Positions 15,992-61,910 of a stretch of 64,000 bases of DNA are shown here, piece after piece. Numbering within the stretch: the stretch's first letter is position 1; every line of letters begins with the position of its first letter. The stretch comes from Ostreococcus lucimarinus (Eukaryota): NCBI GenBank assembly GCA_000092065.1, contig CP000584.1, one strand, 5' to 3'. The notes under the pieces were generated by a model that was given only the letters and a program-made list of their open reading frames with translations, made no database searches and was not told the origin of the DNA. Both the position numbers and the translations under genes were made by a program.

Positions 15992-16142
15992 GTGCGTGAT
16001 CGCGCGCGCGCGTTTCGCGATCACTCGTCGCGCTCGACCGCGCGCGCGTCGCGCGCGACCGCGACGGATCGACATTTGATTTTGAATGCGCTCGACGCGA
16101 GACTGACGCACCGCGCGCGCGAACGCGCGACTCGAACGACAG

Positions 16143-17884: not shown

Positions 17885-17915
17885 GATGCAGAAGCTCGTT
17901 GGATGTTTTTGTGTT

Positions 17916-17920
17916 GTAAT
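17916..17920 (+). promoter_or_regulatory. TGTAA (UGUAA) candidate poly(A) signal, 32 nt after the CDC45 stop
   Basis: Green-algal UGUAA poly(A) signal is established knowledge. The motif is seen at this position. Confidence 0.45.
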
Positions 17921-17931
17921 GAATCTCTGTT

Positions 17932-17936
17932 TTACA
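17932..17936 (-). promoter_or_regulatory. TGTAA on the minus strand, 15 nt after the Beclin stop
   Basis: Reverse complement of ttaca. CDC45 and Beclin converge with only 66 bp between their stops. Confidence 0.45.
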
Positions 17937-17950
17937 AACGCATTTTGGTT

Positions 17951-34736: not shown

Positions 34737-37745
<3,009 letters not shown>

Positions 37746-37856: not shown

Positions 37857-38810
37857 TCAAGCGATGATATCGCTTTGCAAAGCTTCGTTACTAGCGCCAC
37901 CGCTACCGTCACCGCTACCATCGCCGCTACTGTTATCGTCGGGTGAAGCGTCGGACACTTTGCCAAAAGTTTTGGGACGCAAACGCTCGGCATCTTGGGC
38001 GTCGAGAAACGTCGAGCATCCGTCCTCCAAAAGGTCGGATTGCTGCTGCCACATTTGCTTCGAGCACATATTATTCCGCAAATTTCGAATCAGTAAAAGA
38101 GCAGTCTCCCTGTCGATGGCCGTCATATTTTCCAATGGCGTCGTGTGCGACAATCTCAAAGCGTGTTCTGGCTCTGTTCGCGCTTCGTTCACTTTGAACA
38201 AATCTGCGAGAAAACCGTAGACGGTAGCGAAATCTGGGGTGTTCGTGCTATTTTGTAGCGGTGGTGGCACGCCCGGAGCGCGTTTCGGCGCTACGGGTAG
38301 CGAGCCATCCGGTTCCACTTGCAGCCGTAAACGCATCGCTTGCGACATGCCTGGCACGTAGTTGACGGCGCGCTCACCGTCTGCATGATTGCTTTTTTTG
38401 TGTCTCGGTGGCGGCATCTGGTCTCCTTGACCAGACTTCATCAGCTTCAGGAAGTGTTTTTGCGCGTGTGATCTGATCTGCACAACGTCCTTTGATCCGA
38501 CGTATTCCTCGATTCGTTTCCAGTCGCGGCTATACAACTCCAGCGCTCGCAAAAATCTCTGATGTTCCTTCGGCGTCCACGACACACGCGCCCGAGTCTG
38601 CGTGTACGGTTTACGAGGTTTCTTTTTTCCATCCGCACTCGCTCCGCGCGTCGCCGACTTTCGCTTCGACATCTTGTTCGTGTCGCGCGCCACCTTGTCC
38701 ACGGCGGCTTGCACCATCTCCTTGGTGACGATCGGTGGCGACGTCGTCGGCCCGGGGTCCGCCTGCGCCTCCGCGTGCCCTGGCGCCGCCACCAATGCAC
38801 CGTGCTTCAT
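37857..38810 (-). CDS. Single-MYB (SHAQK[Y/F]F class) transcription factor, CCA1/LHY/RVE-like
   Basis: SWTPKEHQRFLRALELYSRDWKRIEEYVGSKDVVQIRSHAQKHFLKL matches the clock-MYB signature. The ORF-track N-terminal extension (to 39095) is Arg-rich, so the start is taken at MKHGALVA (38810). Confidence 0.75.
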   Translation of the reverse strand: MKHGALVAAPGHAEAQADPGPTTSPPIVTKEMVQAAVDKVARDTNKMSKRKSATRGASADGKKKPRKPYTQTRARVSWTPKEHQRFLRALELYSRDWKRIEEYVGSKDVVQIRSHAQKHFLKLMKSGQGDQMPPPRHKKSNHADGERAVNYVPGMSQAMRLRLQVEPDGSLPVAPKRAPGVPPPLQNSTNTPDFATVYGFLADLFKVNEARTEPEHALRLSHTTPLENMTAIDRETALLLIRNLRNNMCSKQMWQQQSDLLEDGCSTFLDAQDAERLRPKTFGKVSDASPDDNSSGDGSGDGSGGASNEALQSDIIA

Positions 38811-39115
38811 CTTCCGCGTCGCGCCGATCGCGTCCTCGGTCGATCGGGTGCCGACGCGTCGAGCGGGTGCCGACGCGTCGAGCCGATCCGATCCGACGAT
38901 CGAGCCACTCGACACCGTCACCGCGCGCGCGCGCCCGACCCTCTTTCGCGTCCGCGCGCGTCGCGCGACGCGCTCGCGTCGTTCGAGCGCGCGTCTCGCC
39001 CGACGCGTCGGTGCCGCGCCGCGGTGCGTCGAGCGACCGCGTGTGACGCTTCGGTCGCGACGCGTCCGAGCGCTGGAGCGCGCGTTCGCCCGCACTTCGC
39101 GCCGCGCCTCGCAGC

Positions 39116-39664: not shown

Positions 39665-39895
39665 ATCGAGGGTTTCGTTCATGTAGATATTTTAGGAGTT
39701 GTAACGCGCGCGATTCGCGCGATTCTCGCGTTCGTCTTGAGCCGCACGACGTTTTGATCCTCGCGAGAGCGTCGTCGCGCCGCGCGAGATTCAACCAGTC
39801 ATCGACATTCCGAACCGGTGCGGCATCATACGGCGACGCGTCGTCACCCGATCGCGTCGGAGGCGAGACTTGCGGTTATTCCGGAGTCGACGCGC

Positions 39896-42800
39896 GATGT
39901 CGCGCGCCGCGGGCGCGTCCGCGCCGTCCACGGCGAGCTCGCACGTTGCGTTCAGTGGCTGGCTGACCAAGCGCGGAGGAAAGGATTTATACGGTAAAGC
40001 CACGTGGCGCCTGCGATATTTCGTGCTTCGACGACCGAGACACGCGAAAGAGCGGGCGTGCGTGCGGTACTTCGCCAACGAACCCGCGGACGGGGCGGAG
40101 AGCGCGGCGAAAGGGGAGTTTGCGATTAACGGACAGAGTGCGGTGCGAATCTTGGATTCCGATGAAACGTTCGCGGAATTCGGGCTCAAAGCGCACAAGT
40201 ATGCCGGGAAGCGGATGTTTGCGTTTCAGACGATGCCGGGGCAGGGCGGGAAGAGCGCGGCGCTTGTCGTGGAGGCGGAGGATCTGACGACGATGCAACG
40301 GTGGGTGACGGCGATTAGCGAAGCAATCACTCGGGCAAGAAGTTTGGAGAATGAAGCGGCGAGTAAAACCGGTTTGGCGGTGTTAAACGCGCAAGTCGAT
40401 GGCGATGAAAACGATGTTTTACGAGGGAAGAACTTTCGGGGGACGCTTGAATTGGCGGGACTTTGCGGACCGCTCGGCGACGGCGCGCTCCCCGTGCATT
40501 TGGACGCGTGCTGGGAGAATTTGACCTTTGTTGATCTCATGGCGGATTCGTGCTTGAACGAAAAGCTCGGCAAGATGCGACGATCGAAATACGTGCGCGA
40601 GACGTTGACGAGCTTGGTCGACAGTGCGATCACGATTGGACGGTGCTTGGGGGCGTCGCCGATTCCCATGAGCGGGCCAGAGTCTAACGCGATGAGCACG
40701 ATTCGTCGAGCTCTTGATGATATGCTCGCACTCGCTCGCTTGATGCCAGTCGGTACGAAAGACAATAATATTTTTGTTTCGTTTCTTGCGGCGCTGTTGG
40801 ATCGCGTTCGTCAGCTTCGACCAGGTGAACTGATCATGTGTCCGGGAGGTTGGGCAAACGAAGAAGGCGGCGCTGCGGTGATTTACACCATTCACCGTCT
40901 CCCCGCACACTTCGTTGTGAGCTTGACCAACTGCGGCGACGGTGTGGAGTTTCATCCTATTCAAGCTGATCCTGCGAAAGATGCTTTCAAGTATATTCAT
41001 ACCATTCAGTTGATGGACGTTCCGATAGCCGTCGCGATGGACTCCTCGGCGTGGGCGCTGCTGTTCCGCCCGTTGATTTTCCCTCAAGACGCCGCCAGTG
41101 CGAAAGACATGATTTACAACAAGCTCCTTCCCATGATGAATGGTCGTCCTCTACTCGCTTCGGTCACCCCCAAACCACTGCGCACTGTTAAGTTTGCGAA
41201 ACAGCCAAGAGGACGCGATTCAAGCGGCGTCTTTACCGCACTCGAAGCCGCTCGATGCGGTCTCGCTAGTTTAGGTTGCCCGCCGAATCGTGCAGATGCG
41301 TTGGTGAACCTTGGAGTAAGGTTTGTCATGCTTGAAGAGGCCAAGCGCGATTTGGAGCGCGTGAACATGATCGGTGCAAGCGCTCTGGTTACGTTGCAAG
41401 CGGCGTGTAGAACGGTTGCGGAATACGCGGCGAATCATGCCGACTTGTGCGTCGAGGCAGAAGAAGCAAGTAATGGTGAGCCACCGAAGAAAACGACAAT
41501 GCCCCGAGAAACGCTGGCGCAGATGTTGCGCTCAGTTGAATCGGTGATTCTGCGGACAAAGGCCCTGCACGGCGCAACGACACTACCGCCGGCATTGCAA
41601 CCGCCGAAGGTACCGATCACGGCGTGCGCTTTACCACTCTTCAACCGCCTCGCCAGCGAAGGTAACGTAGATTCGTTAGCAGGTGCAGCTAGAACGCCAC
41701 CGATTTTGAGGCCAGTCGAACTCACATTGGTGCCGGATGCCGTGGCGAAGCTAGAAGACGTACCCAAGGCGTTGAGAAACGCGCTGCATTGCTGCACGAT
41801 TCTCGCAAACCAAGCGGATTTGATGCCAAACTCTTACGCCTTGCGCGTGAGCTTGCTCGTGCACTTGTTTGTACATGTCCTGCCGGCACCTTTACCTATT
41901 ACGCACCCTGAGAGACATACGAAATGCTTTTGGGCATCGGTGAACACCACCTATGAGCTCCAAGCTGAAATTTTGAGGAGTCTAAATTTGTTGCTGCGGC
42001 ACTTTTCCGCCGCAGCGCTTTCAATCAGCGTCACGCAGACTTTCGATGCAGCGCGTTTACTCACCATTGCCAATTTCGCGGCAATCGCGGATGCGACGCT
42101 TCGTCTTAAAGTAGCAGACGCGCCGTCTGCGTTCATGCAACACTACGCCGGATACGCCGAAGGTCCGATTTCGGCGTTTGGTTTTGAAATCGGTCCGTTC
42201 GCCGTTGAGGCAGAGTACTTGCGTTTCCACTGCCCAGAACGTACCATTAGGTTGACTCAGACGCTGGATTACTTTCATAGCTTGAAGAAAACGATCGAGA
42301 GCGATCACATGATTTACCGTTGGGAGAATGAAGCCGCGGGTGGGATGTCGTTTGGCGTCGGCGAGGCGAGACTCATCGATCAAGTCTGTTTGCAAATGGG
42401 TATCGGCCGAGAAGATCCAGAGTACTTGGCAAAGTATCACAGTGGCGAGTTGCGTGAGTTTGCCGATAGCTATCCGGAAATGAGTGCACTTCGAGATATC
42501 ATTTTCATGTTCAAGTTACTCATGGCGCCGACGTCAGACGACCTTCCAGAGCTCGCACGTTGGAAGCCCATCGACGCTGCGTTGGATTGGAGTGTGGCGC
42601 GACGCGAAAGTTCGCGTAGTTACTTTGACTTGGAAGTGCGGGCTTTCGGTCGTGCTTTGACTATTCAGCCTTGGAAAGAACCAGAGGTAGAACAGGGCAC
42701 GTCTAAGACAGGTTGGCGTAACATTTTTGGCGGTGGATTTTTCGCAAGAATGCAAGATCGCCGGCCGCGATGCCCACCTTCGGGCGCCAATCCCAGCAAC

Positions 42801-45800
42801 CTGGCTGGTCAGCGAGTCGACACCGAAGAAGACGTCCTTCATTTGCGCGAGGTACCAACGTTTGACAATCTGCTTAAACCAAGCGAGTCGGAGCTGCTCC
42901 TGACTTACTTGACCGCTCCCATGATTCGTTTGCCGCTCGTGATGAAGCTGTTCGCAGAACCGACACGCGTGCGCGGGTTGACGCACAACGACATTCAGAG
43001 TGTTTTAGACGCTGTGATTTTCGAGCCCGGACCTTGGGCGCCTCCAGAGCCGACGACAATACCAAAGGAAATACCTGCAACAACGCGAGCGCATATGGCA
43101 ACGCCGACTGGTTTACTCGTGCACGAGCTCATCAACTGTCCGGCGCCTCTCGCGGATAGCGCCGAAGAGCTGTTGGCGTTGAGTTTGGAATTAGATACCG
43201 GGCGTCACGACGCACCGAGCGCACAAGGGGTGTTGTTCGCGTGTAGGATGCTCACTAGACTGCTGGCGTTCGTAGATAGCATCCTCAAGGCAAATTCGCT
43301 CGATTCGGAATTCACGACATCCACTGGCTTGACGCGAGGGCTGGATTGTTCGTCGGCGTCTTTGTCGGCACTCGCGGACGTCAAAGTCCGCATCACCAAA
43401 GCACTCAAGGAGAGATGTCGACCAGTGATTCAGCGATGGTTACGTCACGCGGTGAAGAAAAATGCAATTCGTGCGGCTTGCGCACTTCACGCACATCTCG
43501 CGTACATGTACTACTGGACGCCTCGAGTAGAAATAGACAAACAAGCGGCCCTCATTATTCTCACGGCACAGCAGTACATTTTCGTGAACTACCACTTCAC
43601 AGATACACCGGATGGAAGCGAGACGAGCAATAGAAAGTTGGCGGACACGGGGAGTATGAGCGGTGTCGATACTGGTCTCGGCTTTGCGCCGACGGAGATT
43701 TTTGACCTGTTCCAGCGAAAGCGACGGAGCATTCTGGAATGGGCGGCGGCGAATCCGCAAGACGCTAATAGCATTCTGGAGAACGTCGTCGAGACGCTCA
43801 CTACTAAGAAGACAGATGGCTCGAACTCACCAACGAACGTGTTGGATGCAGAGGACACGTTTAGCGCGAAGCGTGCGTGGCGCCGTGCACCAGGTGCGGG
43901 TGGTGCTGGTAGATTTGTCAGCTACGTGTCGGATATCCCATTCGCAGATCTCGTCGAGAGGGACAAACGGGCCGCGGCGCTTTTACTTCAAAACCATCGT
44001 CACTACGGAGAGTGGCTTCTGGAGACGACGCTGCAGTCTTTCGATATGGAAATTAATGCTCAGCTCGGCGAATTCACCGTTCGAAAGAACCGATTGCGTC
44101 ATTTAGAAGCTAGTATTCGTGAAATGCCGGACTTCGTCGCAGCGCTGGGACCAGTGCTCGCCAAGCGCGGGATTGAGCCGTCGCACTTCCAAGAACTCAG
44201 CAAAGGGGACGAGCTCGTGATCGGCGATTCGGGGGATGTCGTTCACTGTGCGGAGGTAAAGAATACGGAGCATCGTACATGGATGCGTCTCGTGGGTCTC
44301 AATCATGATATTCAGTTGTGGGATCGAGATCCAAGACCGCCGCTGAACGAATTTACGCGACCGCTCGTTAGCCGCGTGCAGACAAAGTCACAAGCATTAG
44401 AACTTTTGGGTCGTGCAGTCGGTGCTGGTGGTCTCGCAAGCTGCGAGCAATGGATTCTTTCTATTCTTGATCCCATCATCAAGGGTCCGGGCGCGGGATA
44501 TCTGCACGGTGTCGAGCTCTTTTTACCCAAAAATACAATTCACGGGTCCATAGCTCGCCTCGCCGGCACTGGCGCGCCTGAGAATGCGGTGAGCGAACCT
44601 TGGAGTTTTTGGAAGCGAAAGACTGTGAGCACATCCAATGACGATCAACGTCGCGTGGAAGAGGCCAAGCAGCTCTTGACGGAGGTAATGATCGTTAGAG
44701 AACCTCCTCTGGTACAAGTTTTCCGCGTGGAATCGTACGGTCGACGTTGGCGACGTTCGTTAGTGTTCGCATCAAATGCTTCTTTCTGCCTCGCAGATAT
44801 CGATCCCGATGGTCAACCAATTCTAAAGGATGAAAATGAACGATTTTTACTATCTGCCGCGCGTCTAGGCTCGCGAGCTCCGAGTTTAGTCGTCACGAGA
44901 CTCTTGAATGGCTTCATCGGACGCGAGTCGTTTGTTCCGGCGCGACATTTGCGTGGCTTACTGCCCCAGGTTTTGCTCGAAGAGTACCAGTTTTGGCGAA
45001 GCGAAACTACTGGTGATTTATTTGGTACCGCGAATGAAAGTGCTTCGCACCCGAATACTATGATCCATGTGCGATTGGGCTATGAAAACAATTTACTGCT
45101 CGATGGAGGATTTCCCGTAGATACTCGCGCCATCGTGCGAAGACTTCCAACAATGGGTGCTGATGGGATTTCGCGTCTCCCCCCGCTAGATGGTTCGTAC
45201 GTCGATGGTCAGCTTACATTAGTAGATCTTCTGTATGCGCCCTCGCTGGCGGGTGAACAAGGGCGCGCTCTACTCGCGCTCACCAAGTCTCTCGCCGCCG
45301 TCGAAGGATTGGCACATTCGCTTGTCTGGTCATCAAAACCTGGGCTCGAAAGTGGGCCGAATGAGCACATCGCGGGTGTGTGCGATATATCGCGTGTTGA
45401 ACTTCCAAGACTTGGTGTTTCGTTCAATGCGATAGAGTCAGGTGGTGCTATTCGCTTGGAGTGTGAGGAACACGCCGGGTTGTTTTTAGCGCAAAGACGC
45501 AACGCCGCGCTCGAGATTCTGCTTACCGGGCTGCCGCATGCGCTTCTTCTCGAAGCTCGAGACGGTGCACTGTCTGTGCTATTATCGGCGAGCGCAATAC
45601 CTCGACCCGCGGCGACTGCGTCGGACTTCGCGCATGGAGCGAGCACGGGACTCGGCTCAGATCTCATAATCGATCGTTGGAGCACGCAGTGGGTGGAAAA
45701 CATAGGCAGCACAAAGCACTATGTGTATCCTGTGCATCCTTCGCATGCGACAATCAGTGCAACGTCGATGCCAGCCGCTCTATATCTCGCAATCCTGCGA

Positions 45801-48800
45801 TTCATAGGTCGCGATTATCTCGCCGTGCTCAGACTTGCGGAACTCTGTGTGTCAGAAGCGGTGCCCACGCCAGAGGAAGCGCAGCTGTGGGACGCGCTCG
45901 CGCATGCGTGCTCTTTGGATCCAAGCCCCGACGCCACAGCAGTTCGCGTGAAGCTTATGTTGATGGTAAAAGACACTCCAATCGAACCCCGACTCGCGCT
46001 GAAGTGGCCACCCGTGGCGGATGTACTGAATTACGTCAATTGCTGGTCGTACATCAGCGCAAATTGTCGCCTCACTGGACATGAAGAGCTCACCGCGATC
46101 GAAAGCTTGGTTACGGAGACCATGGCAAAGAAGAAAACTTCCAAGTTCAAGGCTGTCATTAGTTTCATGTTCCCCGGCTCCAAGAAGGCGAGCGCGGCGG
46201 ATATGAGTATGGATCCAACGAAGACCCCAGAGTTGTTGAATCGTGCGGCGTACTTGAGGCAGCTCGTGGGCGGAATCGCGCGCATGAGCGCCGGATCTAC
46301 GCCGACGAGTTCTGGATTCCCTCTAGTATATCCAGTGGCGCCAGAATATGACAGATTCGATACCGTGGACGACCTGACTTGCTTGTCCGATAAGGTAACG
46401 GGTGAAGGACCTCTGGGCAAACTCGCGGGTCTGATTCAAACGTACAATCGTCCAGATGACGTGAGCGTCAACGGTAGTCAGGCGCTCGCTTTGATCGGCC
46501 AATGGATCGACAAGGAAAAGTTCAATCTCGACGGTAACTTGGGATTCCCGTTATTCTTTGAGCTCATGACTGGAACCCTGCCGCTGCGCGTTCTTCCTGG
46601 TGATTCTCCCCATCGTTGGGGTTGCGTTCTCCTTCGTTTTGTGCCAAACGAGCAATCGATGAAGTGCGGTACACTCATGAGTACGTTACGCGTACTTGCT
46701 TCCAGCCCCAACATCGCGCAGGATTGTCCTAAAATGGAAGAACAGAGCGTTGGTCAACGGTTTAGTTCAATGTTTACTTCGGACGGTGCGATAGGTATGT
46801 TACTTCGCAAAGTACGACCGTACCTGCAACAGCGAAAAGAGGAATTCCCCGGTCGCATATCTTGGACGGGCAAGGAGTACTTGACGCAGAGCATATACGA
46901 GTCTGACGTGCAGACTTGGGCGCGTACGATTGCTACTGGCGGCAGATGGGCGCTGACTCGATTCATGAATACATCGTGCTCTGAGCGCGAGTTCTCTCTC
47001 AAGTCGAGCGATAGCGCTGAGATGGCTGGTGGTACCACGTGGAGTGGGAAAACACTCCAGCACGTGGATCTGGAGATGCTCGTGAAGCGCCCACTCGGTG
47101 TCCTTGATTTGAACAAGTATGTCGTTCCTCTTACGGAAGATAGAGCCGATGAACTCGCGGAATCCGTCGCGCTCGGCGGTGTCGGTGGTTTGCCGTTTGA
47201 CGTCAGCCAGCATCCAGCGGCTACGACGTCCGTCGCTAGACAGATGCTCAATCGTTTGCGCGCCGACGTAACCGGAGCATCAGACAAAGCTAAGGCGCGA
47301 CGCATGAATGGTGATTTTAGTGCGGTGACGTTGAAGGGTTTCTCCCCCAGTGATACTGCCGCGATCGCATCTGAAGCGGGTGCAGGCCGCGCCGGTCATG
47401 CCGCGGGGACCGCCCGTGCGGTTCTACGTGAATTGCTAGAAGGAATTCGTCGTGTCACCGCCGACGATAAGGCGGCCGCATCTGAGGCTATGTCAGCTGC
47501 ACTTGCTACGGCGAATGGTTTACGAAAAGACGTCGAGTCTGGGACAAAGATGTTACGTCTCGGATTGCAGCGCCGCGCAGGGGCTTGGGCCGAGGTGACA
47601 TTTGAAGATTTGGTTGAGTGTTTGACGTGCGAAGGCGGCGAACACATTTTATCCCGTTTGTCTCCAGATGTGACCGCAAAGCAAATAGTTGATGCGTTAT
47701 ATTTGACGTCGCAAGCGTTGCTGCTCACGCTTCGCGCGACGCTAGCCGCGAAAGCGGCGGGTATGGTGGCTGACACGCTCATAGCGTTGACGAATTGTGC
47801 AAAGACAGCGGCTATTGACGGTATTGATTCTGTCGATCGAGACTTGAGGCTCAAAGCTCTGGCAATCGCGGAGTTGATTTCAGTGGAACGACATTACTTC
47901 CAGGCGGACACTGCGAATCCATTCAGCAAGGCAACGCGCTTGATCTTTGATCCTCGTTTGCTAGTCTACGAGTACAGTCAGAGCATCGTGCTGCGCAAGC
48001 GCCAAGTCGAGCTGACTCGAGATTTCGTTGACACGGCTGAGAACGGTGGCGGCCAGTGCGCACAGATGCTCATGGGTGAAGGTAAAACAACTGTGGTGTG
48101 TCCATTACTGGGCTTCGTTCTCGCCAAGAGCAGCTCTGTCGTCGTCCAAGTAGTCCCTCACGCACTTCTCGAGTTTTCGCGAAGCACTTTGCGCAAGGCG
48201 TACTCAGGAGTCATCAGACGTTCGGTCGTTACCCTCGAGTTCAACCGATACACATCCCTCGCCGATGGCTCAATACTCGCAACTTTAAGGAAAGCGAAAG
48301 AGAATCGAGCCATCGTCATCTCGTCACCGACAAGCATCAAGTCTCTCGCGCTTAAATTTTTGGAAGTCTGCCACCTGCTCGATCAATCGTACATCGCTGA
48401 CCGTGATGGCAAGACCGGTGGTATGCTCGCACAAGGAGCTGATTTAGTCAGTCGCGTTTTTGGTGGCGCTAAAAGTCGGAGTGAACGTGTTGCTGAGGCT
48501 GGTGGGTTAACCATCGAAGAAATAAACACATTGCGCTCAGAGGCAACGGCGGCCGCGGAAATTTTTGAAATTTTCCAAACTGGCACGCTTATTTTGGACG
48601 AAGTCGACTTGATTCTTCATCCTTTGAAATCCGAACTCAACTGGCCAATGGGTCGACGTATTCCGCTCGACTTCAGCAAGGCTGCGTCAGGCGACGGTTT
48701 GAGATGGAAGCTTCCATATTACATCCTTGACGCCATCTTCGCAGTCACGTACGGGCGCTCGACGGCTTCGGAGGCTGAAGGTTCGCAAGAGGCAATCGAT

Positions 48801-51800
48801 CTGCTCGACGGTATACGCGCCGCGGTTCGAACGGCGATCGAATCGAAACAATTGCAGACATCACCGCATCTAGCGTTGCTCGATAAGTCTTGGTATCAAG
48901 ATATCTTGCGTCCGCTCTTGGCGCAGTGGACGAGCATTTGGCTGCGTGCTCATGGCGCGTTGCGTGGCATGTCAGAGGCACTCATTATGGCGTATCTTCT
49001 GCGGGGACCGGGCGCGGCTGAAGCAAAAGCGCAGCTGAATCGTGAATGTGAAGACGAGGCTGTGAAGATGACCAACCTCGCGCGAGATTGGCTTTGCTCT
49101 CTGTTGCCTCACATGCTCGCGAAGATTAATCGCGTAACGTTTGGTTTGTTACAGCCCGCGGACGTATCGCTACTCGAAGAAGTGACGGGATCGCGTCTGC
49201 CGAAAACCCGTAGACTTTTGGCAGTTCCTTTCGTGGGTAAGGATATTCCGAGTCGAACGAATGAGTTCTCACATCCAGATGTCGTTCTCGGGTTGACAAT
49301 TTGCGCATACCGCCTCGAGGGTTTGCGCCGTGCCGACTTCAAGCAAATGCTTCGAATCTTAATGGAAGAGTACGATAACGAGGCCGGTCCTCCTCAGAAG
49401 CGACCGGCTGCTCGTAGGTGGGCGGACTGGGTGCGTACGACTGGGAAGCGAGTGCGAGGTGAAGCGCGCGCTGAGGCAGCGCTCGCCGCAAGACGACGCG
49501 GCGTTTCGCAGCAAACCGGAACTACAAATGTCGGGGATACCCGCGGATTGGCGTGGCTCGAAGACGACACCGCAGGTCTGCAAGACGACGAGGTTTGGCC
49601 TTTGCAGCTTATCGATCTCAGAGATCACGATCAGGTTGAAGAAATCTACCAACTTCTGCGAAGGACGCCGCCGTGTATCGAGTATTATCTCGACGAATTT
49701 GTCTTCCCTGAAACGGCGCAGCATCAAGATTTGAAACTGAGCGCCACTGGCCAAGAACTCGGTGGTGATGTGTTGTTCCCCAACCGACTCGGTTTTAGCG
49801 GTACCCCGAGCGACTTACTGCCGCTCGAGCTCGGTGCTCCGCGATACGAATCCGGCTCTGACGCCAAGATGCTGGCATACTTGACGGATCCGGAAACCGC
49901 AGCGACGATGCCTTTGGACGTTGATTGGAACGTGCAGACTCTCCTCACCCGTATTGCGACGGTAGACCCACCGATACGTGCGCTCATCGATACGGGTGCG
50001 CTTGTCACGGGCATGTCCAACCTCGATGTCTCGAGATTCTTACTCGAGAAGGGTCTGAAATGGGCTGAAGGATGTGTGTTCCTCGACGAAAATGATCGAC
50101 AGATGATTCTCATGCGCAAAGGATGGGAAGTCATTCCTCTTCAACGCGTCGCCGCAATGCCTTTGACGAAACGATTTACGTTCTATGATCAAGTTCATAC
50201 GACCGGTATGGACATCAAACAGGCCGCGGCGTCGCAGGCAGCCATCACCCTCGGTAAAGACATGTGTCTTCGCGATTATGCGCAGGGTGCTTGGCGCATG
50301 CGCGGTTTGGGCAAGGGTCAGACGCTAAAGGTGATTGTGATTCCGGAGGTTGCGAGACTCATCTCGCACGAAGTTGCCAAAGGAGGTGGACAGATCCCAT
50401 CGACGCGCGATGCTGAACTCGCGACAATGTCGGCCGAAGCGGTCGAGAAGCGTAAGTTACGAGACATCACGGCTTGGCTCGTCGTGAACAGTATGCGAAG
50501 TGAGAATATTCAAGCCGGTTTGCTCGCAGAGCAACGCGCGGCGAATATCTGGAGAAAGCATTCATACAGGAAGCTTGTGTCATCGCCCACTGCACCGGGA
50601 ACACCAAAGGCGGAGGGTATGATTCACGCGTGCCTTGACGTCTTCCGAGATCGCGTGTCGTACGTCGTGGCGAATGTCATTCCTCAAAGTGTATCGCCTT
50701 CAGAGAAGTTAGCGAGGAGCGTACAGCAGTTCGGACATTTGCTCGACGATAGTCCTCGCGCAAAAGAGCAATTACGATTGATCGTGAACGACGTGAAGCA
50801 AATGGAGGAGACGACGAATGCGGCGTTGAAGCGGATTCGCGCTGGCACACACATGGCTCCAGATGCGGCGGAGTCCGGTGATCAAGGTTTGGCTGGTGGT
50901 TTGGAGCACGCCTTGGACCTCGAGCAAGTTCAAGAGAATGAGGAAGAACAAGAAAATGAGCAAGAACAAGAGCAAGAGAAGGAAGAAGAACGTGAGGAAG
51001 AAATCATCGAGGAAGCCCCAGATGGCTTGAAGTACGTGCGCGACGACGAGAAACAGCCGTCGTGGAGTTACGAGTCTTTGTGCAAAAGTCCAAGCTCAAT
51101 GGCTCAAGGTTTCTACCCACTCAAAACGTTCAAGATACATAAAGGTGTCGGCAAGACTACAGCACCTTTGGATTTCCCGGAGTATCTATATCTATCGAAA
51201 AATTACTTCCGTGAAGGATGGGCGCTCAACGGCCATCGACGCTTGAAGAATCTCACCGTCGTGCTGGACTGGGTACCGGATAGCAGCGCTTTATCGACCG
51301 ACGCCGGTGGTAGCGTCGCGGCGGGTACGTTCACAGCAGACCAGGAGTCAGCGCTACGAACTGCGTTCGATATGTTTGACTCTTCCGGAAACGGTCGTTT
51401 GACAGAGTCCGACCTCCGAGAGGTTTTGCGTGAGATCGACGCTTGCGTAGAAGACGATGAGCTTCGTCTTCAACAGTTGGCGCGTGAGGTTGCTGCAGAA
51501 TCACGCACGTTCAATACCGGGGGTAAGTCATCTGGGACGTCTTTCGAGGAGTTAAAGCGCGTCCTTCGTTCGAAGAACATTTACTCATTGCAACGTGGGC
51601 GATACTACGTCGCGTTGTCTCTGGCTGAAGCCGAGTCGCTGCGCGTTGTCATGCATCTCACGAAGGGTAGTAAAGCGAGTGACGGCAAACTGATTCCATC
51701 CAAACTCACCGAAGCTGCGTTGCGAATCGGTGGCGGTACGCTCATCGATAACACGTCGAGATTTACGCCCGCACAGGTGTTTCAAGGTGCGACGGCCGAG

Positions 51801-53672
51801 CAATGTTTCAGATTTCTCGACAGTCAGCTGGATTTCGAAGACCGCGAAGTTTCATTGCTGCTTCGTGCGCTCCAAGGGTCGTCGTGCGATAAGCGAGCGC
51901 AATTTTTCGTGTCTGTTCGGGCGTGCAGGCGGCGCGCTAAAATTCCATGGGCGTCGTCGCCACTCGCCAAGGTTCTCACTACGGTGGATGAATTCCATTT
52001 ACTCGCGTCGAGAGCACTCGTCGCTCGTGTACGTACGGCGCTCAAGTCCAAACGTATGCGTCTTTTAGATGCGTTCCGGGCTTTTGACGGAGATAACATT
52101 GGAAAGCTTACGTATGAAGCGTTATATGGTGGCTTGTCGTGGCTCGGCCTTTCGCTCACGTCGGCTCAAATGCTCGAGCTGGCTGCGCGTGTGGACAAGA
52201 CGCACGACGGCTACATCAGTCGAGAAGAGTTCGAGGAAGCTTTCGGGCCAGATGACGATTGGGTTTTAGATGGCGATTTCCACGAACAGGTTCCCATACC
52301 GACTCTAGCTCCCTCGGTGCCAGTGCCGACGTCTCAGCTTGCGCAAGTGAGCTTGATGGATATTCTCGGCGACGTTGGAAGCGACGAGGGGTCGAAATCG
52401 TCGAGTAAGGATCTTGTCGCTCCTGAGATACAGTCGCCATCGAAGGTAATGAGCACGGAAAATTTGAGCATCGATGACGGTACAGGACTTGGTGACTGGG
52501 GCGCGCTCGGAATGGCGGCGACTTTACCAGTTGTTGCGAAGAAGAACCCGCCTCTCGCCAAGGAACAGCCCAAGCCAAGCGCGAACGATCCGTTTGGTTT
52601 GGGTCCTCCAGCCGGCGCGTCGTCAACCGCGTTCGATGATTGGTTGTCTGGCGGTTCGGGCAACATGCTTGGCGGTGGCTCGTTGAACGATCCCCTCGGC
52701 ACTCAAGCAAACCCAAATGCCGCAGACGGCTGGGAAGGCAACGACATGATTCAGCTCGACACCTCGACTGGTACCATCGCCGCGCCGGCGCGAGATAAAA
52801 TCCAGGCAAGAGCTCTTGTGGATCCGGCAAAGGAAGCTGAAGAGCGCAGGCACCGCCAAGTCGATTCCAAGTTGACGAGCTCGGCTCTTAATGGGTTCCA
52901 AGTAGCCGTCGTGCACCAAAAATCGTTCCAAAAAGTTTGGACGAGCGACGGCACTGGAAGCCGTTCGACTGGAAGCGTGTGGCAAGCAAACTTGGGTAAA
53001 TCGACGCTGAAGAAAAAGACTGAGCGCATTTCGCTCGGTCACTACGCTTCGCCACACTTTTCGCAACCGAAACCTGCGCCATTTGCTGTCGAAGTGACCG
53101 ACATAAATGCGTTCGCGCTCACTGGTTCGAACTATATGCCACGAGTGTTGGATCGCTTGTTCCCACATCCGAGCCGGTTCAGACAGGTTTGGGGACAAGA
53201 ATGGAAAGGAACGGCGGTGTATGCGTGGACTCCCGTGCCGCCACCTGGATGCGTAGCCATTGGTATGGTGTTGACGTCTATCCCGCAGGCACCGGACGTG
53301 TCCACCATGCGATGCATTCCAGAGAAATGGGCAATAAAGCCAACGATGGAACCCCAACTCGTGTGGACGAATGAAGGCAGTGGTGGTCGTCCGGCGAGTA
53401 TTTGGTTGGTGAACTCGCTCGGTTTGTTGTACGTGAATGTCGGGCACAATCCTCCTCCGGCGAGAGATGTTTGGGACATCAAACGAGGTCAGCTCACCGC
53501 GGACCAGGTGCTTCAGTATCAGGCGTCGGCGCCGCAAACGTCCTACGGCGGAACAGGAATTTCGAGCGACAGCTTTGACGGACCGACGTACAACCCTCCG
53601 CGGCCTCCACCCCCGAGCGGCAACAGCGGTGGATCAAACGCTTTGCCCGCGGGATTAGGATCGCTGATTTAG
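39896..53672 (+). CDS. Giant multidomain protein (about 4592 aa, single exon): N-terminal PH domain, central P-loop NTPase module, acidic E/Q repeat, two EF-hand pairs, beta-rich C-terminal domain. Function unknown.
   Basis: PH domain: VAFSGWLTKRGGKDLYGKATWRLRYFVLRR...GKRMFAFQT...MQRWVTAISEA. Walker A MLMGEGKTTVVCPLLGF and Walker B TLILDEVDLILHP at about aa 2730-2900. EF-hand loops DSSGNGRLTESDL, DGDNIGKLTYEAL, DKTHDGYISREEF. Uninterrupted ORF with even codon usage. True ATG at 39896 (the ORF-track start at 39870 is TTG). Confidence 0.85.
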
Positions 53673-53766: not shown

Positions 53767-56352
53767 TTAGTTGTGGAACATCGGCGAAAGTGGCGCGCGG
53801 TCTCGGCTTCGGCCAGCCGACGAGCGCCTGGGAGATGGCTCGTACGCCTTCGAGCCTCTCATAGGATTCGGCGAATATTGCGCGAATTGCGCCTTGGCTT
53901 CGGCGATGCCCTCACTCAAATCGTGGCTCGCTCGAAGGATTTCGTCCTGCGCCGCCATCTCGCGCGCAGCTGCGCTGTGGAACGTCGTCCCACCAACGGC
54001 TGCCTTCGCGGCGGCTTGCGTTGCAGGAGAGTTACCGCTCGATGCCTCGAGCTGCGAGTGGATCGATGCAAACTTGGACTGTATGTGCTCCATTTGCTCG
54101 AGCTCGCTCTCAAGCTTGTGACGACGAGACTCGAGCGCGCTTCGGACGCTCTTGACGTCGAAGACGGAGTCGAGACTAATCTCAAACGCGTCTTCCATCT
54201 CGTTGCGCAAAAAACTATTGAAGTCGTTCAGCAGAGGCATAAGGAAGAAGCAGTTGAACTTGAGCTCGACCGACTGAACGATGTGTGCGCGAATACCGGA
54301 GAAGATTTGACGAACCAACATGTCAACAATATCCACCGTGACCGACTTCATCGTTCTGTTCCAGAGCGTGTTTTCAACCAAATCCGTGAGCTTGCAGTTC
54401 TTCAACTCCTTATCCGACATCACGAGCTCGCCACCGGAGCGGCGCTTTTCGTCTTTCGCGTCATGTTCGCCTTCATGCGGCGCCAAGACGTTTCGTAGAC
54501 CAGCCTTGTTTCCAGAGTGCAACGACCAAGTGACGAACTGAGTCGTAGACTTGAGGTCTTCGTGGCACTTTTCTTGGCATTCCTTGACTCGGTCGTCCAC
54601 GAATCGAGCGAAAGTGCCGCCAATCTTCTTCAAGAAGACTTCGTGCCCGTTCAAAATTCGTCCCTCCTTTTGCAAAAGGTACATGGCCACAGGCAAAGTT
54701 CGTCGCGCGATGTGAGACAGACGGAAGCCGAGTTGGTGCACGAAGGGCTCAAACGTTTCTCGAGCCCGAGCGATGGCAATGACGCACGCAGTGCGCGTGT
54801 AATTGACACCGTTGTGGATTTCATCAACACCGCACGAGTTGACGATATCTTCTCGGCTCACCGGCGGGCACTCCACGGCGTTGACGATTAAGCGGAACTC
54901 TTCGAGGGCTCGATGGTATTGCGCGCCACCGAAGAGCCGCATATCGGCGTTTGGCACGGGTTGCTGCGGCATGCAAGGTCGACCGTCCGCGTTCACGAAC
55001 GCGCCGCCACGAATGTGCTCGTGCGCGAGAGACTCGCCAAAGATGCGCGGCGGCGCGGCGAGCGTACCTCGGACAATCTCCGGAATCTTTTCCAAAAAGT
55101 GCTGATAAAAGGCGCGACCCTTCTCCTTGAGGTGATCTTGGTTCAAGTCCGCCAACTCTTGCACGGTTTCAGAGAGCTTGCTCGTGGCGATGCGATGCTC
55201 GCGTTCGAGCACGGGAACAATCGTGGGAACGTTCTCCAAGTATCGCTGCTGCAACAATCGCTCGAGGAAAAATCGCAGTTGGCTCACGCCGATGCGGCCG
55301 CGCTCGTGCGAAGACAGGTGACGATCCAAGCGGCGCTCGAGTTCGGCGATATCGTGTTGCTCGCGCTCGAGAACGGCCTCCCGATAGTGATCGTTCGAGC
55401 GATACTTCGAATCTCGTGCGAGTCCAACGCGGCCAGAGGGCACGGAGGAAAAGAACGGACCACCACCCAAGACGGTCGGCTCGAGTAGACGCGCCGGCGG
55501 GTGCAAGAACATTTCGACGTCTTGCGAGTGAGAAAATTGCGGGATTCGCGTGTCGAACTTGGTGCTCACCACGACGGTACGTCGCAGCTCGGGATCGGCT
55601 TCGAGAACCAATCGCCGAGTGGTGGCGTTGGACCAATCTGAGCTGTCTTCCAGGCACAAGATGATGTAGTCTCGCTGGTGCATCTTTTGCTTGACTAAAT
55701 CCTCCACCAAGCGCGCAGACTGTTGCAAACCAGAAAACTTTCGGCCCGGCGCGGCGGAGATCAAACCGGGGGTATCGATGATGGTGAGGTTCGGGCAATA
55801 CTTATACTCGATCTTCACGACGATGTCCTTCGCCCAAAACCCGTTCTCGTTTTCCAATCGTCTGTTTTCGCCTTCAATGTGCGCCTGCAACTCGGGAAGC
55901 GAGAGCTCGTCCTCGCGCCCAAGATTGTCGTCCTTCATCAAAAAGCACCTCGGCTCCACGGCGGAAGGGTTGTACTTCATGTTGATCGCGATTGGACGCC
56001 TCGTCTTCGTTCCACCACCGACGTGGTTGAACTGGAACCCCATCAACGCCTCCACGAGCGCCGACTTTCCATCCGTCTGGTGTCCGACGACGAGAATCGC
56101 CGGCGAATCAAACGGCTTATCAAACTCTTGCGCCATCGTGTGCAACTGCGAATACGCCTCGTACAACCGCTCGTTCGCCTTGTTAAAGAACCGCTTGGGA
56201 GATGCCCGTCCATCGTCTTGACTCGAATCCACCGCTTGTCCGTGCGCCCAATACGCCGGCTTCGCCGCCGTCCCCGGCGCCGCGCGTCGCTCCGTCTCCC
56301 GCTCGTACCTCGCACCCCCGTACGAAGATTCGCGCGCCTGCGTGTGAACCAC
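53767..56352 (-). CDS. DRP5B: Dynamin-related protein of the DRP5B/ARC5 (plastid-division) type, 861 aa
   Basis: GTPase motifs G1 GHQTDGKSALVEALMGFQFNHVGGGTKTRRPI, G3 LTIIDTPGL, G4 VSTKFD. The extended similarity I recall to plant ARC5 (…KYCPNLTIIDTPGLI…FIILCLEDSSDWS.ATTRR…) favours DRP5 over classical dynamin. Confidence 0.8.
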   Translation of the reverse strand: MVHTQARESSYGGARYERETERRAAPGTAAKPAYWAHGQAVDSSQDDGRASPKRFFNKANERLYEAYSQLHTMAQEFDKPFDSPAILVVGHQTDGKSALVEALMGFQFNHVGGGTKTRRPIAINMKYNPSAVEPRCFLMKDDNLGREDELSLPELQAHIEGENRRLENENGFWAKDIVVKIEYKYCPNLTIIDTPGLISAAPGRKFSGLQQSARLVEDLVKQKMHQRDYIILCLEDSSDWSNATTRRLVLEADPELRRTVVVSTKFDTRIPQFSHSQDVEMFLHPPARLLEPTVLGGGPFFSSVPSGRVGLARDSKYRSNDHYREAVLEREQHDIAELERRLDRHLSSHERGRIGVSQLRFFLERLLQQRYLENVPTIVPVLEREHRIATSKLSETVQELADLNQDHLKEKGRAFYQHFLEKIPEIVRGTLAAPPRIFGESLAHEHIRGGAFVNADGRPCMPQQPVPNADMRLFGGAQYHRALEEFRLIVNAVECPPVSREDIVNSCGVDEIHNGVNYTRTACVIAIARARETFEPFVHQLGFRLSHIARRTLPVAMYLLQKEGRILNGHEVFLKKIGGTFARFVDDRVKECQEKCHEDLKSTTQFVTWSLHSGNKAGLRNVLAPHEGEHDAKDEKRRSGGELVMSDKELKNCKLTDLVENTLWNRTMKSVTVDIVDMLVRQIFSGIRAHIVQSVELKFNCFFLMPLLNDFNSFLRNEMEDAFEISLDSVFDVKSVRSALESRRHKLESELEQMEHIQSKFASIHSQLEASSGNSPATQAAAKAAVGGTTFHSAAAREMAAQDEILRASHDLSEGIAEAKAQFAQYSPNPMRGSKAYEPSPRRSSAGRSRDRAPLSPMFHN

Positions 56353-56981
56353 CGCGCATCATTCGTCAGTCTCGTTCTCCGTCCTCGAATCACCCGCGCG
56401 CGTCTCCGACCTCGCGTCTCCGCGCCCGTCCGCCCGAATCCTCTGAATTCGACCGTTTAAAAACCGTTTCGAAATCCCGCGTCGCCCTCGACCCGTTCGC
56501 GCGCGCGCGCGCGACGTCCCGCGCACCTCCTCCCGTCGCGCCGACGCTCGATCGACGACGTTCACGCTCGCCTCCCCGAACGCCTTCTGCAACCACCGCT
56601 CGGCGGACGCCCCCGACGCCGCGGGCGAGTGTCGCGCCGACGACCCCGGCGGGCTCATCGCGTTTGAATCTCCGATCGCCTCTCGCGCGCGTTCGCGGTC
56701 GCGTCCGACGCGCGTCGCGTCGCGCTCGCGGGTCGACGCGCGCGGTAAAAACTCGCGCGTCGTTTCGCTCGCTCGCGGCGCGCGGCGAGCGGTCGCGCGG
56801 GACGGTGTGCGGCGCGGGCGCGCGGCCGCGGCGCGCGTCTCACGGGGGTCAACGCGGGACGGGGTTTTATACCAAGGCGCGCGCGTCGTGACTGTGACTG
56901 TTTGCCCACACGACGCACGACGTCGCGACCGCGTTATCCGAATCGCGCGCGCGCGCGGTCGCACTCCGCGGCGACGAGACG

Positions 56982-57040
56982 ATGTTCGCGGTGCAGCGCG
57001 CGCCCGCGCGCGCGCTCGCGAAGAGCGCGCGCGGCGACAG
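56982..57040 (+). CDS. LPD: Plastid-type dihydrolipoamide dehydrogenase exon 1 (transit-peptide exon MFAVQRAPARALAKSARGD + 2 nt)
   Basis: ATG 56982. Donor GACAG|GTGCGCGG at 57041. The downstream exon has no in-frame ATG, since the ORF-track start there is GTG. Confidence 0.5.
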
Positions 57041-57229
57041 GTGCGCGGCGCGGCGCGGCGCAGCGCGCGACGCGCGACGCGCGAACGCGAGACGCGAGAC
57101 GCGACGATCGAACGGCGAGGTCAAAAGCGTCGCGCGACGGGACGGCGACGGCGCGGCGACGACGCGCGAGGCGAGGGGCGAAGAAAAAACGACGAGCGAG
57201 GACTGACGAAAGGCGACTCGACGACGCAG

Positions 57230-58724
57230 ACGCGCGAGAAGCGCGCGACGAAGCGCGGTGGTGCGCGCGGCGGAGAAGTCGTACGACTACGACTTGGTGA
57301 TCATCGGCGCGGGCGTCGGCGGACACGGCGCGGCGATGCACGCGGTGTCGCGAGGGATGAAGACGGCGATCATCGAGGGCGATGTGATCGGAGGGACGTG
57401 TGTGAATCGAGGGTGCGTGCCGTCGAAGGCGCTGCTCGCGGCGTCTGGACGCGTGCGGGAGATGCGCAACGCGGAGCACTTGCGCTCGCTCGGTATCCAG
57501 TTGGATCCGAGCGCGGTGAGCTTTGATCGTCAAGGCATCGCCGATCACGCCACGAATTTGGCGTCGACGATCCGGGGTAACTTGGAACGTTCGTTGATCG
57601 GGCTTGGGGTTGAAATTTTGACCGGGGCGGCGAAGATTGAGGACAACCACACAGTTTCCTACGGCGCGCCGGGCACGGTCACCGGGGGGAGAGTGACGGC
57701 GAAGAACATCATCATCGCCACCGGTTCCACGCCGTTCGTGCCGCCGGGCATCGAAGTCGACCACAAGACGGTGTTCACCTCCGATGCGGGTTTGAAGCTC
57801 GACTGGGTCCCGGAATGGGTCGCCATAATCGGTTCCGGTTACATCGGTTTGGAATTCTCCGACGTGTACACCGCGCTCGGCTCCGACGTCACCTTCATCG
57901 AAGCCATGCCTAACATCATGCCGGGTTTCGACAAGGAGATCGCTAAGATGGCGGAACGTATTTTGATTACCCCGCGTAACATCGACTACGTCACCAACGT
58001 GTTGGCGACCAAGGTCACGCCGGGTATCCCGGGCGAAAAGCCGGTGACGATTGAGCTCACCGACTTCAAGACGAAGGAAGTCGTCGACACTATGGAAGTC
58101 GACGCCGTCTTGGTTGCCACCGGTCGTTCTCCGTACACCGCTGGCTTGAACGTCGAAAGCATCGGCGTCGAGCTCCAACGCGGCTTTATCCCGGTCAACG
58201 AAAAGATGCAAGTGTTGGACAAGGATGGCAAGGTTGTCGAGGGCATGTGGTGCATCGGCGACGCCAATGGTAAGATGATGTTGGCGCACGCGGCGAGCGC
58301 CCAGGGTATTAGCGCGATCGAGAACATGCACGGTAACGAGCACGTCCTCAACCACCTCTCCGTTCCGGCCGCATGCTTCACTCACCCCGAAGTGTCCTTC
58401 GTCGGTTTGACTGAGGAGCAGGCTCGCGCCAAGGGTGAGGAGGAAGGCTTCGAAGTCGCCGTCCGCAAGACGTCGTTCAAGGCCAACTCCAAGGCGCTCG
58501 CTGAGAAGGAAGGTGAGGGTATGGCTAAGTTGATTTACAACCCGAAGACGAACGAGATCTTGGGTATGTGGATCATGGGCTTGCACGCCGCGGATTTGAT
58601 TCACGAAGCGTCCAACGCCATCTCCACAGGCGCCACTTTGGACGACTTGAAGTTCACCGTGCACGCCCACCCGACGCTTTCCGAAGTCATCGAATCTCTC
58701 TTGCGAGGCTCGGACGGGCACTAA
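57230..58724 (+). CDS. LPD: Dihydrolipoamide dehydrogenase (E3), plastid-type, exon 2
   Basis: Acceptor gacgCAG| at 57227-29. [22 protein letters not shown]...[25 protein letters not shown], where [10 protein letters not shown] is the plastid-type redox-active disulfide block (mitochondrial is CLNVGCIPSK). The interface-domain HAHPTLSE is also present. Confidence 0.85.
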
Positions 58725-61906: not shown

Positions 61907-61910
61907 GGCG
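61901..61910. other. Second copy of the 10-bp palindrome CGCCATGGCG at a head-to-head gene junction (sulfotransferase on minus, PAM on plus)
   Basis: Plus ATG 61905-61907 opens the PAM ORF with a signal peptide. Minus ATG 61906-61904 is in frame with the sulfotransferase ORF. Confidence 0.6.

Follow-up and report, generated by a model that had tools for sequence, protein, structure and literature searches.

A giant protein of Ostreococcus lucimarinus with a predicted SF2-type ATPase motor and EF-hands is a member of the DUF3638/DUF3645 family

A 64,000-nucleotide stretch of contig CP000584.1 from Ostreococcus lucimarinus (assembly GCA_000092065.1), hereafter called the window, carries a gene for a protein of 4,591 amino acids (Table 1), hereafter called the giant protein, which is a bona fide member of the DUF3638/DUF3645 family and of its giant, EF-hand-bearing subfamily, catalogued but uncharacterised. 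The two domains of unknown function (DUFs) together form one superfamily 2 (SF2) motor, which is a new recognition, and the composite model, given a probability of roughly 55 %, is that of a soluble giant mechano-enzyme, a membrane-recruited and probably Ca2+-gated SF2 ATPase. Also new here are a structural link of its N-terminal domain to AnkH and LegA15 of Legionella, evidence that the enzyme name carried in databases is unfounded, and the convergent pairing of a PH or FYVE domain with a predicted beta-tripod.

Domain content and the ATPase motor

Pfam matches were judged against the curated gathering cut-offs, and five segments of the protein were additionally scanned at E ≤ 10. All domains named in a first-pass annotation made from the DNA letters (a PH domain, a P-loop block, two EF-hand pairs and a beta-rich C-terminus) were found with matches above the cut-offs, and the same holds for the PH, DUF3638, DUF3645, EF-hand and Vps62 models in the profile search which it had proposed. 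The resemblance to DUF3638 and DUF3645 that it had suggested was borne out by both profiles, DUF3638 (PF12340) matching amino acids 2686-2825 (E 1.3e-23, 84 bits against a cut-off of 31) and DUF3645 (PF12359) matching amino acids 3103-3134 (E 8.7e-14, 51 bits against a cut-off of 25). A search with the motor segment gave 122 matches, every one a member of this same family; of the 120 with Pfam domains listed, 119 have DUF3638 and/or DUF3645. Nothing significant was found in Pfam at E ≤ 10 for amino acids 151-2700, DUF6606 included, and nothing meaningful in the NCBIfam scan of the protein. A PDB sequence search with the whole protein matched only EF-hand proteins (centrin, calmodulin).

The motifs were found where they had been placed earlier (GEGKT at amino acid 2727, ILDEVD at 2899, YDQVHTTGMD at 3430, and the acidic EQ linker at 3682-3698), and the P-loop NTPase described there could be sharpened, by motifs and by fold, to a complete SF2 helicase-type motor. 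It is made up of two tandem RecA-like alpha/beta lobes, a mainly helical insertion of about 400 amino acids between motifs II and III, and a C-terminal helix of 47 residues, a long helix following RecA lobe 2 in the structure model. Homologs of 24-45 % identity show little or no variation in the motifs Q-like 'LRK.QV', I 'G.GKTT', Ia-like 'VVP.ALL', II 'DEVD', III 'SGTP', V 'HTTGMD' and VI 'QGA.RMRG.G'. In the giant protein SGTP begins at amino acid 3301 and motif VI, QGAWRMRGLG, at 3463, the motif labels having been assigned by eye. One homolog also matches Pfam ResIII. In the motor similarity list stand the SecA DEAD motor (16.6 / 318), SecA2 (16.4 / 391), SecA (15.7 / 320), CSB/ERCC6 (15.7 / 316), INO80 (15.6 / 324) and DinG (15.5 / 349), with Hef, LGP2, Rad54, UvrB and others just below DinG in score.

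Because fold and motif set make a complete SF2 motor, DUF3638 corresponds to RecA lobe 1. DUF3645, the signature of which falls in the 50-residue block with the highest conservation in the protein, is the most conserved part of the insertion between motifs II and III, and the YDQVHTTGMD region is lobe 2. Judged from its sequence, the motor very probably has ATPase activity.

A family of giant proteins in distant eukaryotes

A word-indexed homolog search returned just four close relatives; an exhaustive profile search with amino acids 201-1300 returned 2,627 cluster representatives at E ≤ 1e-3, 475 of them at E ≤ 1e-30, and many of these relatives are giants of 3,900-5,234 amino acids. In full-length alignments, 10-11 giants, 24-31 % identical to one another, are collinear with the Ostreococcus protein from about amino acid 200 to about 4110. 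The shared order starts with the domain 'PIW..P.F.DLFAD ... PGG.....Y.V.R....F...NT.G.G..YHP', continues with the blocks 'C.W...Y..Q', 'EDDVLH..LP.F' and 'SELLLSYLT.PYLRIPLVL.FF' and then with the SF2 motor, which is followed by a poly-E/Q linker, 'FYP..F...NYF..W.G.RRIKNV..VLEW.PD' and EF-hand pair 1, and ends with the 'GR.FVALSL.EAETIRRI.H ... CRRR' insert and EF-hand pair 2.

Giants with this core, 4,000-5,200 amino acids long, are found in apicomplexans, euglenids and diplonemids. Members include a Toxoplasma gondii "EF hand domain-containing protein" (KYK65659.1, up to 4,365 amino acids) and proteins of Babesia duncani (XP_067804707.1, 4,420 amino acids), Cryptosporidium serpentis (KAL7066785.1, 5,234 amino acids), Entosiphon sulcatum, Diplonema papillatum (KAJ9467248.1) and other diplonemids; among the homologs of the motor segment are, in addition, proteins of a diatom, a dinoflagellate and a chlorarachniophyte. 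The NCBI models in Toxoplasma, Babesia and Cryptosporidium have 4,033-5,234 amino acids. Two giants, of 4,577 and 4,668 amino acids, come from transcriptome assemblies, which argues for an architecture of one polypeptide and against a fusion of gene models. The suggestion that a calcium-regulated, membrane-recruited giant NTPase would be a novel architecture was not upheld, since giants of Apicomplexa, Euglenozoa and other protists have the same collinear core and the protein itself was already public; the PH and beta-tripod decoration of the Ostreococcus protein is a local variant.

Acidic linker and EF-hand module

The acidic linker and the module that follows the motor keep their positions in the distant giants. 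The module consists, in order, of a 'FYP..F...NYF..W...RR.KN..V.DW.PD' segment, EF-hand pair 1, a helical insert of about 150 amino acids with the signature 'GR..VALSL.EAE..R...H ... CRRR', and EF-hand pair 2. The EF-hands were located at amino acids 3820-3846 and 4054-4116 (EF-hand_7, E 1e-18, two stretches). When a canonical 12-residue loop is taken as D-x-[DNS]-x-[DNSG]-G-x-[ILV]-x-x-x-[ED], one loop of each pair is canonical (Table 1); the partner loop at amino acid 4064 (DGDNIGKLTYEA) is degenerate, as is the partner loop of the other pair. The two EF-hand pairs of the first-pass annotation thus have Pfam support, but just two of the four loops are canonical. A profile of the insert between the EF-hand pairs gave only chance-level matches in the PDB, and the homolog search with the same profile found ortholog fragments only, the module not being found in other protein contexts.

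N-terminal domain, helical region and the ubiquitinyl hydrolase name

The first 2,500 residues had been described as helical sequence with no recognisable motif. They are indeed mostly helical, but open with a conserved alpha/beta domain of the AnkH/LegA15 type, followed by strongly conserved patches. The AlphaFold2 model of amino acids 201-1300 (mean predicted local distance difference test score 86.2) has a beta lobe (amino acids 312-375) between two helical clusters, which is the AnkH/LegA15-type fold, and then long helical arrays. In a profile search of the PDB the domain gave only chance-level matches and AnkH/LegA15 was not reached; Foldseek with the whole 1,100-residue N-terminal model against the PDB gave only weak alpha-solenoid matches, with AnkH/AnkD not listed.

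AnkH is described as having a cysteine-protease-like domain that can be superposed on XopD, a clan-CE protease; the AnkH triad has the order His243-Asp258-Cys324, within the motifs rGHa, D/NRg and GNCSWANV, and no protease activity was detected in vitro (PMC6712400). LegA15 has a putative triad H268-N290-C361 and is reported to bind and hydrolyse GTP, with a pocket of R291, Q353, Q356, C361, K367 and R408 (PMC9757750). In the family the AnkH motifs have as counterparts 'GG(H)a', which lies on a strand, 'VTN.GDG', with which the following strand ends, and, some 96 residues later, a 'GGD.S' loop-helix. With the triad positions mapped by motif order and spacing against AnkH/LegA15, that is by analogy and not by residue-level superposition, the His column at amino acid 326 has His in 13 of 37 sequences and Ala (A326) in Ostreococcus, Asn345 is kept in 31 of the 37, and the nucleophile column at amino acid 441 has Asp in 28 (D441 in Ostreococcus) and Cys in none. 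As A326 and D441 replace the triad His and Cys, the domain appears to have the AnkH/LegA15 fold without its Cys/His chemistry. W206, P316, N345, H353, W386, Y407 and D441 are conserved, H353, W386 and Y407 being nearly invariant among the 37 sequences.

The XP_001417362.1 record of the giant protein is titled "predicted protein", and the UniRef name of the same sequence (A4RWN7) is "ubiquitinyl hydrolase 1". The remark in the first-pass annotation that databases give this name automatically and without experiment was correct; no experimental paper was found. The propagated name has no sequence support and appears wrong.

Downstream of the AnkH/LegA15-like domain, conservation in the helical region peaks at amino acids 600-800, 950-1100 (with the motifs 'EDDVLH..LP.F' and 'SELLL.YLTAP..R.PLV'), 1600-1700 and 1800-2000. 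C633, C677 (in 'KCFWAS') and H702 (in 'RHFSAA'), encoded at window positions 41793-42002, are kept in 8-10 of 10 distant giants and sit in helices modelled with confidence, where they might make up a metal site or a catalytic dyad; C2057 and C4010 are further cysteines conserved in the family. A transmembrane protein was considered and rejected, as no convincing segment was found: the top hydrophobic 19-mers are the buried strand after Walker A and conserved internal segments, mostly helices.

Variable ends and membrane targeting

The family proper extends from about amino acid 205, where distant homologs start with 'PIW..P.F.DLFAD', to near amino acid 4110. The PH domain, the low-complexity linker of about 200 residues and the predicted beta-tripod outside these limits are, as far as sequence comparison goes, lineage-specific add-ons. 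The PH domain is common to relatives at 46-80 % identity, including the close relatives P0121 and P0124, and was not seen among 23 distant giants surveyed. The linker at amino acids 4121-4330 is not conserved beyond close relatives; it contains DPF, DDW, DGW and GDW motifs, which are like the short motifs that bind clathrin-adaptor appendages. The Vps62 domain is also C-terminal in P0055 and P0231, and occurs in 4 of the 23 surveyed giants in addition to P0055. The domains called "Vps62" in Pfam are equated with beta-tripods in the literature; this fold was first reported from insecticidal proteins of bacteria and is also present as accessory binding domains on giant membrane-contact proteins, such as plant VPS13M1/M2 (Levine 2022, PMC7613979).

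The giant of Diplonema papillatum has an N-terminal FYVE domain, which is a phosphoinositide reader, and a C-terminal Vps62/beta-tripod, the PH/FYVE plus beta-tripod pattern having apparently been assembled independently in Ostreococcus and Diplonema. The earlier suggestion of membrane recruitment by the PH domain gains support from the FYVE domain, which stands in the Diplonema homolog where Ostreococcus has PH. Other end modules in relatives are SH3, PDZ, F5/8-type C, LamG, thioredoxin, UBA, WW and the RanBP2 zinc finger. The end modules are mainly of membrane, adaptor or protein-interaction type, with no dedicated nucleic-acid-binding domain among them.

Reading frame and neighbouring genes

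The gene is a single plus-strand open reading frame (ORF) of 4,600 codons from a TTG (39870..53672, stop codon 53670-53672), the second-longest ORF listed within 30-64 kb having 1,194 amino acids. Its translation is identical over the full length to XP_001417362.1 (ABO95655.1, UniProt A4RWN7) of O. lucimarinus CCE9901, and the giant protein is therefore already a public record. The first-pass annotation had given a 13.8-kb single-exon gene starting at 39896 and coding for 4592 amino acids; the one uninterrupted ORF stands, but both values are off by one, because of a 0-based start and a stop codon included in the count. From the base composition of the ORF itself a stop would be expected every ~24 codons, and ln P for 4,591 stop-free codons is about -196. 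The GC periodicity of the codon positions (first position, GC1, above second, GC2) is even across all twelve 400-codon bins, and therefore no part resembles a retained intron or non-coding spacer. Third-position GC is 0.58 in the giant gene against 0.67-0.74 in its neighbours, and GC content across the window is lowest at 40-56 kb (0.53-0.57); the low third-position value might stem from weak codon bias or low expression.

The intron-containing shorter neighbours with which the gene had been contrasted were not found among the four nearest genes (alanyl-tRNA synthetase, TIP49, Myb/RVE and dynamin-like), each of which is covered by one ORF; in all of them except Myb/RVE the main catalytic domains fit the Pfam models nearly end to end. 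The alanyl-tRNA synthetase (30755-34336, minus strand) has complete tRNA-synt_2c, tRNA_SAD and DHHA1 domains with an N-terminal GST_N/GST_C fused in front. The mechanical TTG-start ORF of the RuvB-like TIP49 ATPase (35184-37742, plus strand) extends about 400 codons upstream of the Pfam match, and the true start is for this reason probably an internal ATG, or the upstream part is separate. Immediately upstream of the giant gene and divergent from it lies a gene with Myb DNA-binding and REVEILLE-6-like domains (37860-39095, minus strand), by its sequence a CCA1/RVE-type transcription factor of the circadian-clock class. A dynamin-family GTPase gene (53770-56352, minus strand) is convergent, 95 bases past the stop of the giant gene. 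Both arrangements are kept in a related metagenome contig, L001 (ERZ28548097 contig_15590), the gene order of which matches that of the window: TIP49, Myb/RVE, DUF846, PH...DUF3638...DUF3645...EF, then dynamin.

Elsewhere in the window, positions 8001-10000 have 72.8 % GC over 2 kb (window mean about 60 %), and two minus-strand ORFs of 595 and 689 amino acids (56937-58721 and 59987-62053) have no Pfam match at E ≤ 1e-3. The frame or strand of the 595-amino-acid ORF may be wrong, because its codon-position GC is odd (GC1 0.80).

Table 1 Features of the giant gene and its product (window coordinates; aa, amino acids of the product)
Feature	Position in window	Strand	Remarks
Complete single-exon coding sequence	39897..53672	+	first ATG 39897; 4,591 aa plus stop
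PH domain, aa 19-144	39951..40328	+	PF00169, E 3.7e-8, 34.3 bits against cut-off 25.1
AnkH/LegA15-like alpha/beta domain, aa ~205-480	40509..41336	+	
Conserved mostly helical region, aa 481-2639	41337..47813	+	no Pfam or PDB family
SF2 helicase/translocase-type ATPase motor, aa 2640-3560	47814..50576	+	
Walker A / motif I GEGKT, aa 2727-2731	48075..48089	+	family consensus GAGKTT
Walker B / motif II DEVD, aa 2901-2904	48597..48608	+	invariant in 35 homologs
DUF3645 signature 'AVPFVGKD.PS...EF.HPD', aa 3103-3134	49203..49298	+	PF12359; within RecA lobe 1 insertion
Motif III-like FSGTPSD, aa 3300-3306	49794..49814	+	family consensus GFSGTPSDL
Motif V-like 'YDQVHTTGMDI' and motif VI-like 'QGAWRMRGLGKGQ' with arginine fingers, aa 3430-3472	50184..50312	+	labels by eye
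Poly-acidic E/Q linker, aa 3682-3698	50940..50990	+	position kept in distant giants
Conserved Ca2+-sensor module, aa 3700-4120	50994..52256	+	Pfam EF-hand_7/6/1; centrin/calmodulin PDB matches; family alignments
Canonical predicted Ca2+-binding loop DSSGNGRLTESD, aa 3828-3839	51378..51413	+	
Canonical predicted Ca2+-binding loop DKTHDGYISREE, aa 4100-4111	52194..52229	+	
Low-complexity, probably disordered linker, aa 4121-4330	52257..52886	+	disorder inferred from composition
Vps62-type domain, aa 4335-4479, then Pro/Gly-rich tail	52899..53333	+	PF06101, E 2.2e-6, 26.8-29.6 bits against cut-off 22.1

Proposed mechanism and alternative explanations

In the composite model, ATP binding and hydrolysis between the RecA-like lobes would power movement along a polymeric substrate or its remodelling, with nucleic acid (as in most SF2 enzymes) and polypeptide (as in SecA) as the candidates for this substrate. 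The N-terminal domain and the helical region of about 2,100 residues, in all roughly 2,400 conserved residues ahead of the motor, would supply substrate or partner binding, and because the catalytic His and Cys appear to be missing, the AnkH-like domain would most likely be a binding or regulatory module instead of a deubiquitinase. Ca2+ at the loops at amino acids 3828 and 4100 would shift the position of the EF-hand module and so gate the motor, the odds lying slightly in favour of such gating. Ca2+ binding might possibly also displace the acidic stretch, which would then serve as a pseudo-substrate between the motor and the EF-hand module. Snf2-type enzymes have acidic autoinhibitory elements, and by this analogy autoinhibition by the poly-acidic linker can be put forward as a tentative and rather doubtful addition. 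The PH domain and the beta-tripod would probably concentrate the giant protein on phosphoinositide-containing membranes, recruitment to a membrane being, from the domains predicted, fairly probable.

Several points weigh against this model. Of the four EF loops no more than two are canonical, and EF-hands are sometimes purely structural; PH domains, too, often bind proteins rather than lipids. No nucleic-acid- or peptide-binding accessory domain was detected in the giant protein. The triad assignment in the AnkH-like domain is the analogy by motif order and spacing described above, and the roughly 1,340 residues at amino acids 1301-2639, outside the structure models, could hide a catalytic domain. 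No biochemical, genetic or functional study of any family member was found in the literature, and a Tetrahymena paper from 2025 describes the mechanism of DUF3638 as undefined.

That neighbouring genes have been misread as one long ORF through annotation or assembly is extremely improbable. The call for it comes from contig L001, where positions 4193-18047 hold an ortholog of the giant, about 89 % identical in the motor segment, which is called as at least eight separate, consecutive same-strand genes; the calls carry PH ... DUF3638 ... DUF3645 ... EF-hands in this order, all are on the same strand except one small opposite-strand call, and most abut or overlap, so that the splitting looks like frameshift errors of a polished long-read assembly and not like true gene fission. 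Against misreading stand also the 4,591 continuous codons with even codon-position composition, the identical module order in homologs at 24-31 % identity, the two transcriptome-derived giants included, and the record of the same 4,591-amino-acid sequence on 52 contigs of a protein collection, some of them from Tara samples. It is very unlikely, if less so than such an artefact, that the database label is right and that a protease is coupled to the ATPase, for example for extracting and deubiquitinating substrates. The label stands not only on A4RWN7 but also on homologs in Toxoplasma, Babesia, Pseudictyota and Durusdinium, the N-terminal fold is that of the cysteine-protease-like domain in AnkH, with its relation to the Ulp1-family protease XopD, and some family members have a ubiquitin-binding UBA domain or a RanBP2-type zinc finger. 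The names are automatic, however, and no deubiquitinase or peptidase family was matched in Pfam and NCBIfam by the whole protein or the five segments, the classes covered being USP, UCH, OTU, Josephin, MINDY, ZUP1, JAMM and clan CE Ulp-like. The apparent triad has Ala for His and Asp for Cys, AnkH lacks protease activity in vitro, and LegA15 is a reported GTPase. Some doubt is left by amino acids 1301-2639, by the conserved C633, C677 and H702, and by the few relatives with UBA or RanBP2 zinc fingers.

The possibility that the giant protein is an ordinary RNA- or DNA-dependent helicase or translocase of the cytoplasm or nucleus, with PH, EF-hand and beta-tripod domains as peripheral parts and membranes irrelevant, is the one to be taken most seriously, although it too is unlikely. 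Nucleic acids are the substrates of nearly all SF2 families, the giant's Q-like, Ia-like and VI motifs look like those of helicases, one homolog matches ResIII, and the acidic linker could mimic nucleic acid; but no RNA- or DNA-binding accessory domain was found in the giant protein, the 23 surveyed homologs have none besides a RanBP2-type zinc finger (which can bind RNA or ubiquitin), and the recurrent add-ons (PH, FYVE, beta-tripod, F5/8-C, SH3, PDZ) are membrane, lipid and adaptor modules. Improbable, when taken jointly, are further suggestions that ascribe an activity to the N-terminal domain, a place to it in the origin of the Legionella domains, a GTP module beside the SF2 ATPase, and a role at endomembranes to the whole. 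The AnkH-like domain may be an active enzyme or a nucleotide-binding switch of new type, on a cysteine-protease fold in which the His/Cys pair is replaced by the conserved Asn345-His353-Asp441 set; the family domain may be the eukaryotic prototype from which the AnkH/LegA15 domains of Legionella were acquired; and a LegA15-like GTP-binding or -hydrolysing module may be combined with the SF2 ATPase in a two-engine machine that is Ca2+-gated and targeted to phosphoinositide membranes. If all this were true, the family would account for an endomembrane remodelling or extraction step for which no enzyme is known in protists, apicomplexan parasites included.

Significance

The giant protein is among the largest of a very compact genome. 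Its core of 4,000 residues, to which no function is assigned, has been retained by distantly related eukaryotes, three apicomplexan genera of medical importance among them. Since the motor is a complete SF2 ATPase, mutations in Walker A and B can kill the engine, the EF-hand loops at amino acids 3828 and 4100 provide mutable handles for Ca2+ control, and a membrane localisation is to be expected from the PH/FYVE plus beta-tripod pattern. The biochemistry of Legionella AnkH/LegA15 is disputed, and the eukaryotic family may help to settle the function of the fold there. Caution is called for in the transfer of 'ubiquitinyl hydrolase 1' annotations. The orphan family is solid, experimentally tractable and of parasitological reach, and on present evidence it is not a new kind of system.

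Comparison with known systems

The likeness to deubiquitinases (EC 3.4.19.12) is a remote fold relationship only, that of an AnkH-type domain in the world of cysteine-protease folds; the giant protein differs in having neither a match to a deubiquitinase family nor the Cys and His of the AnkH-type triad. The fold of its N-terminal domain is common to AnkH/LegA3 (PDB 6MCA) and AnkD/LegA15 (PDB 7EW8) of Legionella pneumophila, but the giant protein has no ankyrin repeats, a sequence identity of 9-11 % and no sequence-profile match to them, and at the triad A326, N345 and D441, within a conserved set of its own (N345, H353, D441, W386, Y407). No activity has been proven for AnkH, LegA15 is reported as an atypical GTPase, and neither activity is transferable to the giant protein.

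With the beta-tripods of plant VPS13M1/M2 and of the insecticidal MACPF protein GNIP1Aa the C-terminal domain shares the PF06101 match; in the giant protein, however, it is joined to an SF2 motor, in place of a lipid-transfer bridge or pore former. The motor itself compares, as an SF2 ATPase, with SecA (3bxz, 4uaq, 2fsf) and with Snf2/ERCC6-, DinG/XPD- and RIG-I-like helicases, the likeness to SecA being seen at the DEAD motor only. It has no sequence-level match to any named helicase family, its DUF3645-bearing insertion of about 400 amino acids has no identified counterpart in these ATPases, and it sits in a chain of 4,591 amino acids with EF-hands directly downstream. Closest are the giants of Toxoplasma, Babesia and Cryptosporidium, which have the core in common with Ostreococcus from the AnkH-like domain through the EF-hand module; beyond this core Ostreococcus has a PH domain at the N-terminus and a probably disordered linker and predicted beta-tripod at the C-terminus, whereas distant giants carry FYVE, SH3, UBA, thioredoxin, LamG and F5/8-C domains.

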